DNA from: Hyphomicrobiales bacterium
Lineage (GTDB): Bacteria; Pseudomonadota; Alphaproteobacteria; Rhizobiales; Beijerinckiaceae
Direction of reading: 5' to 3'
Length of the DNA: 64,000 nucleotides
Assembly: GCA_016716745.1 (NCBI GenBank)
Contig: JADJVD010000006.1
Location: 53,840 to 117,839, forward strand
Shown here: piece after piece, positions 14,737-47,657 of the stretch
How positions within the stretch are numbered: position 1 is the stretch's first letter
How the letters are laid out: each line of letters opens with the position of its first letter
Made by a program: the position numbers and the translations under genes
Notes under the pieces: generated by a model
Told to the model about the DNA's origin: nothing
Database searches by the model: none
What the model saw: the letters and a program-made list of their open reading frames with translations, nothing else

Positions 14737-14882
14737 ACGTGCTGATCTATCTCGTTCCGCTCGCGCTCGGCGTCGGCCTGATAGCGCTGTTCGCCTTCTT
14801 CTGGGCGCTGAAGAACGGCCAGTTCGACGATCCCGACGGCGCCGCCCATCGCATCCTCTCGGACGACGATCTGAAGAAATGA
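14733..14882 (+). CDS. ccoS: cbb3 oxidase maturation protein CcoS/FixS
   Basis: Not listed as its own ORF. GTG 14733 overlaps the ccoI stop (GTGA). It reads VNVLIYLVPLALGVGLIALFAFFWALKNGQFDDPDGAAHRILSDDDLKK (49 aa), the typical FixS sequence. Confidence 0.85.
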   Translation: MNVLIYLVPLALGVGLIALFAFFWALKNGQFDDPDGAAHRILSDDDLKK

Positions 14883-16042
14883 AAGCGTCGGACCGTCTCG
14901 CGAGCGTGCCGCGCGCCGGGCGCCTCGCCTGCTTCTGTCCGCCGGGCGTCGCCCCGGACGAGGAGGAGCGGGCCGCCCCCTCCGCGCTGTCGCGCTACGC
15001 GCTGACGCTCACCGTCGTCGGCTTCGCCCTGTCGGTGCTCGCGCAGACGCTCGCCATCGGCATCCTTCCCATCGCCGGCCTGCTGATCGCGCCGACGCCG
15101 GGCCTGTCCACCGCTCCCTATGCCGCCCTGCTGCTTGGCGCGGCGGTGGCGACCTTCCCGGCCTCCTTCCTCGAAGGCGCCTTCGGGCGGCGCGCCGCCT
15201 TCGCGCTCGGGGCCAGCCACGGCGTCGCCGGCGGGCTGGTGATGGCCTGGGCCATCGGAGCGCAGCATTTTGTCGCCTTCTGTCTCGGCGCGTTCTGGCT
15301 CGGCGTGGCGCAGGGCTTCAGCCTGTTCTACCGCCATATCGTCGGGCTCGACGCGCGGGCAGGCGCCTCGCGGGCGATGGCCACCGTGTTCGGCGCCGGC
15401 GCCTTCGCCGGCCTCGCCGGTCCGGCGCTCGCCGCCTTCGCCGCCGACATGGCGCCCTCACAGGTCTATGCCGGCGCCGCCGCCACGGCCGCCTTCGTGC
15501 AGGTGGCGGTGATGGCGCTGGCGCTCGCCGCGCCGGTCGGCGCCGCGATCAGCACGGACGCCGTGCTGCGCGAGCCCGAGCCGCTCGCCTGGCGCGACAT
15601 GGCCGCGCCCACCGCGCTCGGCGCCGTCGCCTGGTTCGCCATGACGGCGATCATGGTGGCGAGCCCCGGCGCGATGATCGGCTGCGGCATCGCCGCCAGC
15701 GCGGCCACCGGCGCGGTCGCCTGGCATGTCGTGGCGATGTACGCGCCGGCCCTCGTCGTGCCGTGGCTGGCGCGCTGGATCGGCGTCGGCCCGCTCGCCG
15801 CGCTCGGCCTGGCGCTGATCGCCTTCGCCAAGTGGATGACGCTCGGCGCCGACCAGTATCTCGCCTTCGTCGTCGCGCTGATCGTCGTCGCGGTCGGCTG
15901 GGCGTGGACGACGGCGGCGGCGACGCAATGGCTGCATTCGGCCGGCGGAACGCCCTCGCGCCTGCAACTGGCGCTGCACGACGCCGCGCTGTTCGCCTCG
16001 GCGGTGGCCGGCGCGCTGATCGCCGCGCCGAAGATCGGCTGA
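14879..16042 (+). CDS. MFS-type membrane transporter
   Basis: 387 aa with about 12 predicted hydrophobic helices. Its ATG overlaps the ccoS stop (ATGA), so it is probably cotranscribed. Confidence 0.75.
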   Translation: MKASDRLASVPRAGRLACFCPPGVAPDEEERAAPSALSRYALTLTVVGFALSVLAQTLAIGILPIAGLLIAPTPGLSTAPYAALLLGAAVATFPASFLEGAFGRRAAFALGASHGVAGGLVMAWAIGAQHFVAFCLGAFWLGVAQGFSLFYRHIVGLDARAGASRAMATVFGAGAFAGLAGPALAAFAADMAPSQVYAGAAATAAFVQVAVMALALAAPVGAAISTDAVLREPEPLAWRDMAAPTALGAVAWFAMTAIMVASPGAMIGCGIAASAATGAVAWHVVAMYAPALVVPWLARWIGVGPLAALGLALIAFAKWMTLGADQYLAFVVALIVVAVGWAWTTAAATQWLHSAGGTPSRLQLALHDAALFASAVAGALIAAPKIG

Positions 16043-16046
16043 GCCA

Positions 16047-17933
16047 ATGCGCGCGCCCACGCTCCCGCGGCTCGAGCCCGAGGAGCGCGACGCGCTGCTG
16101 CTCGCCGCCGCGCCGGCGACGGCGCTGGCGCTCGGCGCGGCGTTGTGGACGGCGGGGCGCGCCGATCTCGCCCATTGGACATGGATGGCCGGCGTCCTCC
16201 CCGTGCTCGCCGCGCTGGTCGTCTCCATCGTGCGCTCGCTCGCCAAGGGCGATTTCGGCCTCGACGTGATCGCCGGCTTCGCGATGGCGGGCGCGCTGGC
16301 GACGGGGGAGGCGCTCGCCGGGTGCGTCGTCGCGCTGATGCTGTCGGGCGGGCAGGCGCTCGAATCCTACGCCCAGCGCCGCGCCCGCCACGAGATGACG
16401 GCGCTGCTCGGCCGCGTGCCGCGCGCGGCCAGCGTCTATGTCGGCGGCCGGCTCGAGACGCGCGGGATCGAGGCGATCCTGCCCGGAGACCGGCTGCTGA
16501 TCCGCGCCGGCGAAGTCCTGCCCGTGGACGGGCGGCTCGCCAGCGCCGGCGCTGCGCTCGACGAATCCGCGCTCACCGGCGAGTCGCTGCCGGTCGACTA
16601 TCGCGAAGGCGCCGAACTCGACAGCGGCGCAACCAACGCCGGCGAGCCGTTCGATCTCGTGGCGCTGCGGCCGGCCGCCGAATCGACCTACGCCGGCGTC
16701 GTTCGTCTGGTCGAGAGCGCCCGCCGTTCGCGCGCGCCGATGTCGCGCCTCGCCGACGCATATGCGCTCGGCTTTCTCGCGCTCACCGCCGCGTTGACGG
16801 CGCTCGCCTGGGCGCTGACGGGCGACCCGCGCCGCGCGCTCGCGGTTCTCGTCGTGGCGACGCCGTGTCCATTGATTCTGGCCGTCCCGGTGGCGGTCGT
16901 CGCCGGCATGTCGCGCTGCGCCCGGCGCGGCGTGCTGGTGAAGTCGGCGGCCGTGCTGGAGGCGCTGCCGCAGGTCCGCAGCCTGCTGATCGACAAGACC
17001 GGCACCTTGACCACCGGCCGGCCGCGACTGGTCGCCGTCGAGCCTGCGCCGGGCGTCGCCGAGGTCGACCTCGTGCTTTTCGCCGCCTCGCTGGCGCAGG
17101 GATCGCAGCATCCGGTGTCGGCGGCTCTCGTCGACCATGCCCGGCGGGACGGCCTGTCGCTCGCCGCGCCGACGCGCGTCAGCGAGCAGGCGGGCGTCGG
17201 CGTGACCGGCGAGGTCGCCGGCCGGCTCGTCGCGCTCGGCCGACCCGACGCGGATGACGGCAGCGAACCGCCGCCGCCCGGCGTCCTCGCCGTCGCCGTC
17301 GCGCTCGACGGGCGGCCCGCCGGCCGCCTGCTGCTCGCCGATCCGGTGCGGCCCGAGGCGGCGCAGGCGCTCGCCCGGCTGCGCGCCGAGGGCCTCGCGC
17401 GCATCGTCCTGGTCTCCGGCGACCGGGCTGACGTGGCGGAGCATGTCGGCCGCGAACTCGGCCTCGACGCGGTGGTCTCTGAGGCGACGCCGGCCGAAAA
17501 GCTCGCCGCCGTCGCCGACGCGCGTCGCTTCGGCCCGGTGATGATGGTCGGCGACGGCGTCAACGACGCGCCGGCGCTCGCCGCCGCCGATGTCGGGATC
17601 GCCATCGCCGCGCGCGGCGCGGCGGCGGCGTCCGAGGCGGCGGACGTCATCCTCGTCGCCGACAGGATCGACCGGATCGGCGAGGCCATCGCCGTCGCCC
17701 GCCGCACGCGCGAGATCGCGGTGCAGAGCGTCGTCGCCGGCCTCGGCCTGTCGCTCGCCGGCATGGTCGCGGCCGCCTTCGGCTTCCTCACCCCGCTCGC
17801 CGGCGCGCTGTTGCAGGAGGCGATCGACGTCGCCGTCGTGCTGAACGCGCTGCGCGCGCTCGGCGGTCAGACGCCCGAGGCCGCGCCCGTCGCGGCGAGC
17901 GCGCCGCGCGCCGCCGAGAGCGCGGCGGCCTGA
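16047..17933 (+). CDS. heavy-metal P1B-type ATPase with a TPCP transmembrane motif and no N-terminal CxxC domain (P1B-5-like)
   Basis: 628 aa. Motifs present are VVATPCPLILAVP, DKTGTLT and GDGVNDAPAL. It starts 4 nt after the MFS stop. Confidence 0.9.
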   Translation: MRAPTLPRLEPEERDALLLAAAPATALALGAALWTAGRADLAHWTWMAGVLPVLAALVVSIVRSLAKGDFGLDVIAGFAMAGALATGEALAGCVVALMLSGGQALESYAQRRARHEMTALLGRVPRAASVYVGGRLETRGIEAILPGDRLLIRAGEVLPVDGRLASAGAALDESALTGESLPVDYREGAELDSGATNAGEPFDLVALRPAAESTYAGVVRLVESARRSRAPMSRLADAYALGFLALTAALTALAWALTGDPRRALAVLVVATPCPLILAVPVAVVAGMSRCARRGVLVKSAAVLEALPQVRSLLIDKTGTLTTGRPRLVAVEPAPGVAEVDLVLFAASLAQGSQHPVSAALVDHARRDGLSLAAPTRVSEQAGVGVTGEVAGRLVALGRPDADDGSEPPPPGVLAVAVALDGRPAGRLLLADPVRPEAAQALARLRAEGLARIVLVSGDRADVAEHVGRELGLDAVVSEATPAEKLAAVADARRFGPVMMVGDGVNDAPALAAADVGIAIAARGAAAASEAADVILVADRIDRIGEAIAVARRTREIAVQSVVAGLGLSLAGMVAAAFGFLTPLAGALLQEAIDVAVVLNALRALGGQTPEAAPVAASAPRAAESAAA

Positions 17934-43034: not shown

Positions 43035-43097
43035 GTTCATCCCGCGCGTGAGGCGCGGGCGGCCCGCGCCCTGATTCTCTACATGAACATGAAGAAA

Positions 43098-43129
43098 GCC
43101 GGCGAAGGGATTCGCCGGCTTTCGTTTTT
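43098..43129. terminator. bidirectional terminator hairpin between convergent genes
   Basis: GCCGGCGAA-GGGA-TTCGCCGGC followed by TTTCGTTTTTA on the + strand. It is preceded by GAAGAAA, which is a T-rich tail on the - strand. Confidence 0.7.
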
Positions 43130-43235
43130 AACGCTAGGCGCGACCGCTCAGCGGCACGGCGGCAGGCCCGGCCGTCCGCACGGCCGCGGCTGCTGCGGCG
43201 GCGGCGCGGGACGCGGCGGCTGCGCCACCGGCCGC

Positions 43236-43370
43236 GGCGCCTGCATCGCCGGCGCGGGGCGCGGCGCCTGCATCACAGGCGCCGGACGCGGCGGTTGCAT
43301 CACCGGCGCGGGGCGAGGCGGCTGCATCACCGGCGCGGGACGCGGCGGCTGGACCACCGGCCGCGGCTGC
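43236..43370 (-). repeat. about five tandem 27-bp coding repeats (PRPAPVMQP units)
   Basis: GGCGCCTGCATCGCCGGCGCGGGGCGC and close variants, read directly. Boundaries are approximate. Confidence 0.8.
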
Positions 43371-43496
43371 TGGATGACCGGCCTCGGCTGCTGGACGACA
43401 GGGCGAGGTTGCTGAACCACCGGCCTCGGCTGTTGGATCACTGGGCGCGGTTGCTGGACGACGGGACGCGGCTGCTGGATGACCGGCCTCGGCTGC
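43371..43496 (-). repeat. six tandem 21-bp coding repeats (PRPV[I/V]QQ units)
   Basis: TGGATGACCGGCCTCGGCTGC at 43371 and again, identical, at 43476, with four diverged copies between them. Confidence 0.85.
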
Positions 43497-43599
43497 TGCT
43501 GGATCACCGGCGCAGGTTTCGGCTGCATCACGGGCGCAGGCTTCGGCTGGATGACCGGCGCGACCGGGGCAGGCTGTGTCGTCACGGGCGGCGTCGGCC

Positions 43600-44800
<1,201 letters not shown>

Positions 44801-46282
44801 GCTGGCCGAAGAACCCGACCGGCGGCGGCGGCCGCACGCCGTCCGGCACGCGGCTGCGGCCCGGCAGCGGGATCGGCAGCGGGATCGGCAGCATGCCGCC
44901 GAAACCGCCCTGAGGCGGCGGCGGGGGCGGCGGCGGATACCAGTCCGGCTCGCGCGGCGGCAGGAAGCCGAAGCGCGGGGGCGGCGGCAGTTCGTCCTCG
45001 AACACCACGGCCGGCCGGTCGTCGAAATAGACCATCTCGTCCGGCGGCGGCGGCGGCACGTCGTAGGGAATCGCATCGAATGTCGGCGGCGGCGCGATCT
45101 GCGCCTGCAGCCGCGTCAGGCGGCGGCGCGCGTCGCCGGCGTGCGGTCCGCGCGGATAGCGCCGCAGATACGACCAGTAGGCCTCGGGCGAATTGGCCGA
45201 AACCGTTCGCCGCCACGTCACCGCCTCGCGCCGCGCCGCCAGCATGGCGCGGGCGCGCCTGGCCAGCGGATCCTGCGGATAGAGGGTGACGAACTCCTGA
45301 TAGGCGTCGATCGTGTCGCGCTCGACCGCGACCGCGAAGGCCTCGCTCGCCCCGCCATAGTCGCGCATCGGCTTGCTTTGCGAGACCGGCGGGGGCGGCG
45401 GCGGCGCGTCGGGCGCGCGCTCGAGCAGCGTGAAGCCGTCGACGATCGCCGAGGCGTGCCACGGCGTCTGCGCGCCCTTCGTCGCCTCGATGGTGCGCAG
45501 CCGCGCGCGCTGGAAGATGCCGTCGGCCGTCAGTCCGCCCTCGCGCAGCGCCTCGGCCAGCGCCAGCGCATAGGCGCCGTAGGGGCCCGCCTCGTTCGGC
45601 GGCTGCGTGCCCGGCGCGGCGTTGAAGGCGATCAGCGAGCCTTTGTCGGGCTCGAGATAGGCGAGGCCGCCGGCGATCGGCGAACCCGGCCGCACGAACG
45701 GATTATTGCGCGCCGCGTCGAGCACGAGGAAGCGCGCCTTGGCCGGGCTCGCGCCCATCTGGCGCGCGAAATCGCCGACGCGGAGCCCCTCGCTCGGAAT
45801 GTCGGCTTCGGTCTGAACGCGCGCGTCGACCGGCAGCAGGAAGTTGTCGCCGTCGATCTGCACGCCCCGGCCGGCGAAATAGACGAAGGTCACCGTGTCG
45901 GCGCCCGCCTCCTGCGCGGCTCCGGTGAAGTCGCGCAGCGCCTGACGCAGCGTCATCTGGTCGGCGTCGCGCACGCCCGTCACCTCGAAGCCGGCGCCGC
46001 GCAGCGCCTCGGCGATCAGCCCCGCGTCGTTGACGGAGGTGGCGAGGGCGGCGTTCGGATACTCGCCCTGTCCGATGACCAGCGCCAGACGACGCTCGGC
46101 CAGCGCGTCGGTCGCCGATGTGGCGACGACGACGAAAAGAATGGCCGCCCGCCAGCGCTCCCAGCGCGTCCGCGAGATGGACTTCGACGTTCTTTTCATT
46201 GCGGCCTCCATGCCCGGTCGCAGACTTCATGTCTCCGGTCGCAGGCTCCAATCTCGTCAGTGAACCTGCGCTGAACGGCAAG

Positions 46283-46939
46283 TCATTGTCGCGCGTCAAG
46301 AATTGCGCGGACGTCGTGACGCACGAGCGGAACCAGATCGCGCCCGAACCATGTCTCGCGCGCAATCCAGGCGTTATTGCGCCAGGAGGGATGCGGCAGA
46401 ATGATCATGCGCGGCGTCGCGGCGTCATAGATCTCGCGCCAGCGCGTCAGGCGCGCGCCCAGCGTTTCGCCGCGCGGCGTCAGGCCGAGGCGGGCGAGAT
46501 GCCAGTCCTGCGCGTAGCGGCCGATGAGCAGGATCAGCCGGATGTCGGGCAGCGCGGCGAGCGCGCTCTCGCGCCAGGCCGGCGCGCATTCGCGCCGCGG
46601 CGGCAGGTCGCCGCCCTTGGCGTCCTGTCCCGGAAAGCACAACCCCATCGGCAGGAAGGCGATGCGCGTCGCGTCGTAGAAGGTCGGGCGGTCGAGCCCC
46701 ATCCAGTCGCGCAGCCGGTCGCCCGAGGGATCGTCGAAGGGCAGGCCGCTGGCGTGCACGCGCGCGCCCGGCGCCTGGCCGGCGACGAGGATGCGCGCCG
46801 TGGGCGAGGCGTGGAACACTGGCCGCGGCTCGTGCGGCAGGGGCGCGCCGGCCGGCGCGTCGCGGCAGATGCGGCAGGCGCGGATGCGCCGCGCCAGCCG
46901 CGCGAAGGCGGCCTCAGAACTCGACGACGAGGCCGTCAT
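46283..46939 (-). CDS. uracil-DNA glycosylase superfamily protein
   Basis: 218 aa with motifs ILVAGQAPG and ILPHPSWRNN. Confidence 0.8.
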   Translation of the reverse strand: MTASSSSSEAAFARLARRIRACRICRDAPAGAPLPHEPRPVFHASPTARILVAGQAPGARVHASGLPFDDPSGDRLRDWMGLDRPTFYDATRIAFLPMGLCFPGQDAKGGDLPPRRECAPAWRESALAALPDIRLILLIGRYAQDWHLARLGLTPRGETLGARLTRWREIYDAATPRMIILPHPSWRNNAWIARETWFGRDLVPLVRHDVRAILDARQ

Positions 46940-47657
46940 GCGCCGGAATGCAGCCTGCGGCCCGCATGTCGCGCTCGCGGGCCATCGCCGACTCGCTCAT
47001 ATGCGTGACGACCAGCTTGCGCGCCTCCAGACTCGGCAGCCGGTCGAGCAGGGTCGGCCAGTCGATATGCGCATGGGCGGGCGCGTAGCCGGAATAGCAT
47101 TCGACCACGAACAGATCGGCCCCGCGCGCCGCCTCGACCAGATTGGGCGTCCACGACGTGTCGCCGGAATAGCCGAAGATCCTGTTGTCGCCCTCCACCC
47201 GCACGGCGGTCGCCGGCGCGCCGGAGGGATGCACGACCTCGAACGTGTCGACGCGGAAATTCGCCACGAAGGCGGGCTCGCCGGGGCGGATGTCGACCGC
47301 CTGCCAGCTGAACGTCCAGTGCAGCGCGCTGGAGCCGGGAAACATCGCCTCGAGCGCCATGTCGAGGCGCGCCCGCAGGCCGGGGGGGCCGAAAATCAAC
47401 AGCGGCCGGCGCCGGCGCGCCACGAACTGGCATTCGAGCAGCAGGAAGGGCAGGCCGCCGAAATGATCGCCGTGCAGATGCGTGATCAGGATCGCGTCGA
47501 CGTCGTCGGTCGAAAAGCCGAGCCGCTTCCACGAGGTCAGCGCCGACGCGCCGAAATCGACCACGATGGTCGAGCCTTCGGAGTCGAGGCGCATGCAGGT
47601 GTGCGCCCGCCCGCCCGATCCGAACGCATCCCCGCTGCCGACGACGGTGAGTTTCAT
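46914..47657 (-). CDS. MBL-fold metallo-hydrolase
   Basis: 247 aa with the ILITHLHGDHFGGLPF (HxHxDH) motif. Confidence 0.85.
   Translation of the reverse strand: MKLTVVGSGDAFGSGGRAHTCMRLDSEGSTIVVDFGASALTSWKRLGFSTDDVDAILITHLHGDHFGGLPFLLLECQFVARRRRPLLIFGPPGLRARLDMALEAMFPGSSALHWTFSWQAVDIRPGEPAFVANFRVDTFEVVHPSGAPATAVRVEGDNRIFGYSGDTSWTPNLVEAARGADLFVVECYSGYAPAHAHIDWPTLLDRLPSLEARKLVVTHMSESAMARERDMRAAGCIPAHDGLVVEF

Follow-up and report, generated by a model that had tools for sequence, protein, structure and literature searches.

Organization of the locus

The DNA stretch under study, referred to as the window, covers 64,000 nucleotides of the Hyphomicrobiales bacterium assembly GCA_016716745.1 (contig JADJVD010000006.1, positions 53,840 to 117,839 of the forward strand). 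Its minus strand carries, from position 46199 to position 43148, a gene that was delimited from the list of open reading frames (ORFs) and by inspection of the sequence. It codes for a pseudo-orthocaspase, a homolog of the caspase p20 domain in which one or both residues of the catalytic dyad are substituted; here both are. A predicted signal peptide comes first in the protein and precedes the pseudo-p20 domain; a helical pair of CpoB/BamD-like type, a Pro-rich linker, a long low-complexity tail and a terminal Cys-x7-Cys motif follow in this order (Table 1).

The mechanically defined ORF extends from 46211 to 43134 (minus strand) and codes for 1025 residues, which are out of frame past residue 607. 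Residue numbers used here follow this ORF counted from 46211; the methionine at 46199 is thus Met5. This methionine is assigned as the start because of the spacing of the GGAGG sequence that precedes it and because the orthologous gene of a sister genome (GCA_039808725.1, locus L082) is called from the equivalent methionine. The ortholog begins with MKKTSK and is coded in a single frame. The amino-terminal part of the ORF reads MEAAMKRTSKSISRTRWERWRAAILFVVVATSATDALAERRLALVIGQGEYPN. The blocks TVTFVYFAGRGVQIDG and ARFLVLDAARNNPFV are found in its translation where a first-pass annotation of the window had placed them, and the gene start at 46199 given there agrees with both the Shine-Dalgarno sequence and the sister ortholog.

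Table 1. Features of the pseudo-orthocaspase gene and of its immediate surroundings (positions of the window).
Feature	Position	Strand	Basis and remarks
Whole gene of the predicted exported pseudo-orthocaspase	43148..46199	-	1016 residues from Met at 46199 after deletion of one extra C
GGAGG Shine-Dalgarno sequence	46205..46209	-	Sequence; 5 nt upstream of the ATG at 46199 (second ATG)
Predicted Sec-type signal peptide MKRTSKSISRTRWERWRAAILFVVVATSATDALA	46098..46199	-	Sequence; predicted cut after A-L-A, followed by ERR
Peptidase_C14 (caspase/p20) fold domain, predicted to be catalytically dead	45450..46094	-	Pfam; AlphaFold2 and Foldseek
Asp62 (D of NDA), first S1-pocket aspartate	46026..46028	-	Alignments
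Arg115 codon, catalytic-His position (YFAGRGVQ)	45867..45869	-	Alignments, codon mapping
Asp165 (LDA), second S1-pocket aspartate, two residues ahead of the former Cys	45717..45719	-	Alignments
Ala167 codon, catalytic-Cys position (VLDAARNNPF)	45711..45713	-	Alignments, codon mapping
Two-hairpin helical (TPR-like) domain with repeated motif xAYxxFLxxYPxxPxAxxAR	45096..45359	-	AlphaFold2, profiles
Pro-rich linker (PPPPP runs, LPIPLPIPLP)	44802..45095	-	Sequence, low pLDDT; first part kept across the family
Gly/Gln/Met-rich tandem repeats (GMGGMQGQGMQGQGG, KPGLPTPPTG)	43607..44801	-	Tandem Repeats Finder
CCC run with one extra C, +1 frameshift	44391..44393	-	Sequence, switch of GC3, sister genome
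Gln/Pro/Arg/Val-rich repeats (QQPRPVV/I, PPRPAPVMQ)	43181..43606	-	Repeat arrays, corrected translation
C-terminal Cys loop CGRPGLPPCR (Cys-x7-Cys) and stop codon	43148..43180	-	Corrected translation; motif at 43151-43180
13-bp perfect GC-rich hairpin	43094..43123	.	25 nt past the stop codon, between convergent genes; T-run on the plus strand
Spurious ORF	43479..46274	+	931 residues
Spurious ORF	44200..45462	-	420 residues

The caspase-fold domain and the substitution of its catalytic dyad

The first-pass annotation had described a caspase-fold domain in which the catalytic His is changed to Arg and the catalytic Cys to Ala, a description that holds in both its parts. Residues 40-254 match PF00656 (Peptidase_C14) with an E-value of 2.5e-27 and 96.5 bits (cut-off 21.4) over positions 1-225 of the 233 profile positions. 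From the family alignment AlphaFold2 yields a model with a caspase/paracaspase fold and pLDDT values of 80-93 in the caspase core. When compared to the PDB with Foldseek, this model is closest to the paracaspase MALT1 (E 5e-8), followed by caspases-11, -3, -9, -7, -1 and -8 (E 1e-5 to 3e-4). Orthocaspases are distinguished from metacaspases by lacking a p10 domain; Pfam and NCBIfam recognize above thresholds only the C14 domain in the protein. NCBIfam assigns no specific family to it, its entry for the EACC1-associated caspase (NF047832) scoring 35.3 bits, below the cut-off of 140.

Arg115 and Ala167 are assigned to the dyad positions because three linked alignments lead to them. The first, obtained with phmmer against PDB chains, pairs VYFAGRGVQ with LLYYAGHGYE of MALT1, and a profile made from 40 family sequences gives the same pairing of YFAGRG with YYAGHG. 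The second is the BLASTP alignment to a His/Cys relative (P0268; 45% identity), gap-free between the two blocks, where Arg115 stands opposite the His of VYYAGHGVQ and Ala167 opposite the Cys of VVLDACRNNPF. The third aligns this relative to MALT1 (E 1.7e-14) and spans the MALT1 blocks YYAGHG and LLDMCRK, which hold the catalytic His415 and Cys464. Profile alignment, structure prediction and the survey of homologs, the three checks asked for in the first-pass annotation, all bear out its proposal, and the profile alignment has Arg and Ala at the dyad positions. The blocks quoted as canonical in the first-pass annotation are exactly those of the His/Cys relatives (YYAGHGLQ and VILDACRNNPF). A different His/Cys pair at the active site was considered and ruled out: the domain has no Cys and a single, distant His (W-H-A, residue 252), so that a shifted dyad is excluded. 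The catalytic His-Cys dyad of MEROPS clan CD, family C14, is thus replaced by Arg115 and Ala167, and the protein is, as judged from its alignments, a non-peptidase homolog of this family.

Both S1-pocket aspartates, Asp62 and Asp165, are retained. In the alignments Asp62 corresponds to Asp95 of TbMC2 and to the Asp found in the PLVDV motif of MALT1. Neither the two aspartates nor Ala167 vary among the 40 aligned family sequences, and Asp prevails at the two positions in every dyad class with at least two sequences. In metacaspases and MALT1 the two aspartates line an S1 pocket specific for basic residues and they are generally retained in pseudo-orthocaspases (PMC6426788). Conservation of these residues and of the cleft scaffold would fit a hydrolase that is still active with non-canonical residues. 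This is nevertheless highly improbable: the domain has no Cys, the nucleophile position is an invariant Ala in the 40-sequence alignment, and the His position varies between clades (Y, R, L, I, Q, F, K), unlike a catalytic residue.

Distribution of the family and evolution of the dyad

The protein has a large number of relatives. A word-indexed search retrieved 1832 of them and an exhaustive search 3484 cluster representatives at E<=1e-30. The scan of species-representative genomes identified at least 591 confirmed stretches, the best match being 57% among the matches listed, which include Bradyrhizobium, Methylobacterium/Methylorubrum, Rhodopseudomonas, Afipia, Nitrobacter, Mesorhizobium, Rhizobium, Bosea, Methylocella and Pseudolabrys. 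The window protein keeps all 92 positions at which the 40-sequence family alignment shows no variation; at residue 115 this alignment has Tyr in over 90% of its sequences.

The dyad census was carried out on 278 domains from 269 proteins, prior to gap filtering and with the window protein excluded. Tyr/Ala (YA) is found in 193 domains and Arg/Ala (RA) in 27; His/Cys (HC) and His/Ala (HA) are found in 13 each, and the other dyads (YG, LA, QA, FA, IA, KA, RS and more) total 32. When the gap filter is applied and the window protein is added, RA accounts for 28 of 277 domains, and the His position is Tyr in 191, Arg in 28 and His in 29 (13 HC, 13 HA, 2 HN and 1 HS). In the neighbor-joining tree the Arg/Ala sequences group in what is essentially a single cluster. 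It includes the window protein and is marked by two common derived residues, R160 and F148, both present in the window protein. Members of this cluster are found in Methylocapsa aurea (WP_202899187.1), in a Methylobacteriaceae metagenome-assembled genome (P0001; 66% identity to the window protein) and in the sister genome (L082, supported by the Logan assembly L083). The latter has the same VYFAGRGVQ and VLDAARNNPF blocks and is 95% identical to the window protein over 440 residues. The loss of the dyad is therefore clade-wide, with a near-invariant Ala and an Arg that marks a subclade, and the gene is not the one-off degenerate copy that the first-pass annotation had named as grounds against its proposal.

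When the window gene is compared to L082, the ratio of non-synonymous to synonymous substitution (dN/dS) is 0.077 in p20 and 0.032 in the helical domain. Strong purifying selection acts on the dead domain.

The leaf order of the neighbor-joining tree has the His/Cys sequences at one end and the His/Ala forms adjoining them. This adjacency suggests that Cys was lost first, the His position being then free to drift to a residue that differs between clades and is Tyr in most cases. Note that the nearest His/Cys relatives are often tandem proteins composed of one intact His/Cys p20 and one degenerate p20: HC+LS in P0169 and P0254, HC+HN in P0203, HS+HC in P0230, YC+HC in P0248 and HC+LC in P0253. 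Such tandems hint that the pairing of a live and a dead domain may be an old theme in this lineage.

Predicted export signal

The leader has a basic n-region, a 12-residue hydrophobic core (AAILFVVVATSA) and an AxA site (A-L-A) positioned just ahead of beta-strand 1. The homologs all start with classic signal peptides, as in ...SLPVHA|QNQEKR. Judged by eye and by its conservation in the family, this Sec-type leader is predicted to direct export of the protein across the inner membrane. The first-pass annotation had called the protein secreted; what the conserved leader predicts is such export, not release from the cell.

Helical domain, linker and repeat tail

The helical domain that follows the p20 domain spans residues 285-372. 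Its model is all-helical, with pLDDT values of 83-96 over residues 281-370. CpoB/YbgF is a periplasmic division coordinator that has a TPR domain. The family profile compared to the PDB shows a weak likeness to CpoB/YbgF (6g5s, E 9e-4) and to BamD/YfiO (3qky, E 0.07), and sub-threshold matches are found to Pfam TPR_9/YfiO and to the NCBIfam BamD entry TIGR03302. Since this helical motif is also found in P0268, the relative that bears His and Cys, the domain predates the loss of catalysis.

The tail of ~580 residues located past residue 440 is composed of 29% G, 20% P, 14% Q and 10.7% M. Among the tails of 174 homologs Met makes up 4.6% at most, the median being 0.66%; in the sister-genome tail it reaches 9.3%. 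The ~10% of Met in this lineage (window and sister genome) is more than twice the highest and ~15 times the median of the homolog values. The 582-residue tail has no Pfam match even at E 10. A collagen-like tail was considered and dropped, Gly being by eye not at every third residue.

The carboxyl terminus ends in two cysteines that may close a small disulfide loop. A terminal C-x(2-9)-C is found in 82 of 174 homologs of at least 600 residues, many of the others being truncated entries, and comparable endings of complete homologs are CPPGKCKH, CGKPGEPPCPK and CGHPGGPPCRP. The motif is kept across the family although the tails that precede it are otherwise unalignable.

Two possible roles of the ~400-residue GGM/GMQ tail were considered by analogy. 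CopA, PcoA and CueO possess Met-rich regions, and the tail, with its ~10% Met, might by comparison act as a sponge that binds Cu(I)/Ag(I). Alternatively, it might hold unfolded chains in the manner of the GroEL carboxyl-terminal tails, which are Gly-Met-rich (PMC11978752, PMC12571646). That the Gly-Met tail of the window and sister proteins would be a functional periplasmic "methionine bristle" carried by a dead cleft that recognizes basic residues is a speculative, rather doubtful proposal.

Frameshift in the repeat tail

The coding sequence of the tail is interrupted by a +1 frameshift, on which the first-pass annotation was silent. The site reads ctg ccc t|acc (ctgccCtacc), the other repeats reading cta cct acc. 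Past GGMQGGKPGLP the 1025-residue ORF becomes Arg/His/Ala-rich nonsense for its last ~414 residues. Frame +1 continues as TPPTGMGGM..., remains open for 414 codons and ends in the conserved Cys motif. The G+C content of third codon positions (GC3) switches at ~44400, falling from ~0.9 to ~0.6 in frame 0 and rising to ~0.9 in frame +1. Deletion of the extra C yields a product of 1020 residues (1016 from Met5) with a single terminal stop, and the tail of the sister gene L082 reads through in one frame, without shift. The 1025-residue ORF is absent from the protein collection, whereas the products of the neighboring genes are present.

Because the downstream +1 frame is intact (open, with its GC3 and the Cys motif), the shift is either an error or very recent. 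Sequencing error in the homopolymer is the most economical explanation, given the nature of the site, its source in a metagenome-assembled genome and the unshifted sister gene, and the extra C is most likely such an error. The dyad substitutions and the frameshift could together be read as those of a decaying pseudogene, the degenerate relic of an active orthocaspase, whose last ~414 codons are out of frame and whose product is missing from the protein collection as would fit a pseudogene annotation. This reading is improbable. The R/A dyad is common to a whole subclade and to the sister genome, dN/dS amounts to 0.08 (p20) and 0.03 (helical domain) with all family-invariant positions kept, frame +1 is preserved to its conserved end, and the extra base lies within a homopolymer of a metagenome-assembled genome.

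Many homologs found in databases are "partial" or frameshifted in the low-complexity tail (e.g. P0067). The contigs of L081 and L082 end inside the tail. The repeat tail hampers assembly and annotation, and neither the lengths published for family members nor their "partial" flags can therefore be relied on.

Genomic context

Upstream of the pseudo-orthocaspase gene lie, on the same strand, genes coding for SNase-like, GST, MBL-fold hydrolase and UDG proteins, with a divergent histidine kinase gene farther out. A 3-hydroxyisobutyrate-dehydrogenase-like gene converges from downstream, and the hairpin found between the two convergent genes (Table 1) is likely a bidirectional terminator for both. 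The order HisKA, SNase, GST, MBL, UDG, C14 is the same in the P0001 contig and in the sister genome. These neighbors are missing from 80 homologous loci, except for the histidine kinase in a few of them. In many Bradyrhizobium-type loci (L001-L080) the gene is found between dnaE and rpsB-tsf-pyrH-frr-uppS, a stable core-genome position, unlike the histidine kinase-SNase-GST-MBL-UDG context of the window. A conserved operon was looked for as a functional clue and rejected, no operon partner being conserved.

A link to a defense system or to gasdermin-type proteins was also rejected. PADLOC gave a weak generic "caspase" match (E 1.2e-6), and the neighbors are of housekeeping type (histidine kinase, nuclease, GST, MBL hydrolase, UDG, dehydrogenase) with no defense neighborhood. 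The MBL-fold gene (46914-47657, minus strand) overlaps the downstream UDG-family gene (46283-46939, minus strand) by 26 nt. Its protein has a sub-threshold match to Pfam Anti-Pycsar_Apyc1 (26 bits, cut-off 50) and no PADLOC match; it is probably a generic MBL phosphodiesterase.

The G+C content of the window is 65-77% and every frame is rich in long mechanical ORFs. Off-frame and antisense ORFs over 43083-46274, two of which are given in Table 1, were rejected as genes: they are by-products of high G+C content and repeats, and GC3 backs only the frames described above. The region ~14740-17933, apparently unrelated to the pseudo-orthocaspase gene, has a match to FixS (cbb3 oxidase maturation) and a P-type (E1-E2) ATPase gene. 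It is the most G+C-rich part of the window (up to 0.77) and its AT skew is strongly negative.

Caspase-fold domains act as dimers. This established property would suit a protein that acts as decoy or regulator for an active orthocaspase, pairing with a His/Cys paralog in the way of cFLIP with caspase-8 or of TbMCA4 and tuning its activity or its access to substrates instead of binding a separate ligand. The frequent fusion of a His/Cys and a degenerate domain in the nearest His/Cys relatives also speaks for such a partner, and precedents are reviewed in PMC6426788. A role of this kind is however considered unlikely: no second C14 (His/Cys caspase) gene is found in the 64-kb window, the family is single-domain and without conserved neighbor, and Klemencic et al. 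hold that prokaryotic pseudo-variants probably act independently (PMC6426788).

Proposed role of the protein

We consider it likely that the protein is a Sec-exported pseudo-orthocaspase unable to cleave peptide bonds that serves as a non-catalytic binding adaptor of the cell envelope, the frameshift being a sequencing error. Its family would have arisen from exported orthocaspases that share this architecture and possess the His/Cys dyad. Once in the periplasm or envelope, the protein would use its dead cleft to bind a basic residue (Arg or Lys) of a ligand, either peptide or protein, without cutting it, and its helical domain to bind a partner protein. The long disordered tail would serve as a flexible spacer or tether and end in a small knob closed by a disulfide. 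The binding or scaffolding role put forward in the first-pass annotation is made more plausible by the invariant S1 aspartates and by the adjacent TPR-like domain.

Several points weigh against this proposal. The matches of the helical domain fall below family thresholds. The cleavage of the leader and the final location of the protein are predictions. The frameshift could be genuine in the strain, e.g. as a very recent mutation. The gene neighborhood offers no functional hint in either lineage context, and literature searches found no functional work on the family. The Arg115 guanidinium could also fill the acidic S1 pocket and block the ligand. By plugging its own pocket, Arg115 might render the Arg/Ala subclade self-inhibited and mechanistically distinct from the Tyr/Ala majority, an idea as conjectural as that of the methionine bristle and independent of it.

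Comparison with known systems

Klemencic, Asplund-Samuelsson, Dolinar & Funk (2019, PMC6426788) catalogued 582 pseudo-orthocaspases of alphaproteobacteria, Rhizobiales accounting for 96%. The commonest dyads are YS, YA and FS, QC and HA being also frequent, and exported bacterial caspase homologs had been noted already in 2012 (PMC3501461). A close homolog of the window protein, A0A179SI59 of Methylobacterium platani (YLAGYGLQ), is part of the pseudo-p20 alignment of PMC6426788. The Rhizobiales YA/YS proteins described there belong to the same family: in common with the window protein they have a p20 fold in which neither dyad residue is left, an Ala in place of the Cys, the S1 aspartates and a long carboxyl terminus without recognizable domain. 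The window protein differs from them by having Arg instead of Tyr and by its exceptionally Gly/Met/Gln-rich tail. The RA dyad is not named in the text of PMC6426788, which lists YS, YA, FS, QC and HA.

The YS pseudo-orthocaspase SyOC of the cyanobacterium Synechocystis PCC 6803 (PMC7889975, PMC6426788) is likewise a signal-bearing (exported), dead p20 protein with a conserved acidic S1 pocket, and its function is non-proteolytic, as proposed here. It belongs to another clade and differs by its Tyr/Ser dyad, by its Tat-type leader and by having neither a CpoB-like helical domain nor a giant repeat tail. Of the solved structures, MALT1 (PDB 3v4o, 3uo8 and others) is the closest in both sequence and fold; it shares the YxAGxG and LDxxR blocks and the positions of the S1 aspartates. 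In contrast to the window protein, it is a cytosolic eukaryotic protein with a His/Cys dyad, an active Arg-specific protease that carries death and Ig domains. The eukaryotic proteins cFLIP-L and TbMCA4 of Trypanosoma brucei also have a caspase fold whose catalytic residues are lost, and they act by binding or regulation; they differ in that they are not orthologous and work with an active paralog.

Implications for the family

The gene belongs to the already published pseudo-orthocaspases. The observation made in the first-pass annotation was correct but is not new, since the class and a member of the family are found in the 2019 catalogue of Klemencic et al. (PMC6426788). What is added here is the Arg/Ala subclade, the suggested order of dyad loss with Cys first, a fuller domain map with its CpoB/BamD-like helices and terminal Cys loop, and an extension of the family beyond phototrophs. 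Carriers of the gene are found in Mesorhizobium, Rhizobium, Nitrobacter and Methylocapsa (loci including L021, L023, L029, L043 and L044, and protein P0153). These four are non-phototrophic genera. Their presence in the family does not fit the link to phototrophy published for alphaproteobacterial pseudo-orthocaspases (PMC6426788).

The features that might be worth pursuing are only the Gly-Met-rich tail and the possible plugging of the acidic pocket by Arg115. Pseudo-orthocaspases emerge as near-universal and strongly conserved proteins, predicted to reside in the envelope, of the Hyphomicrobiales.

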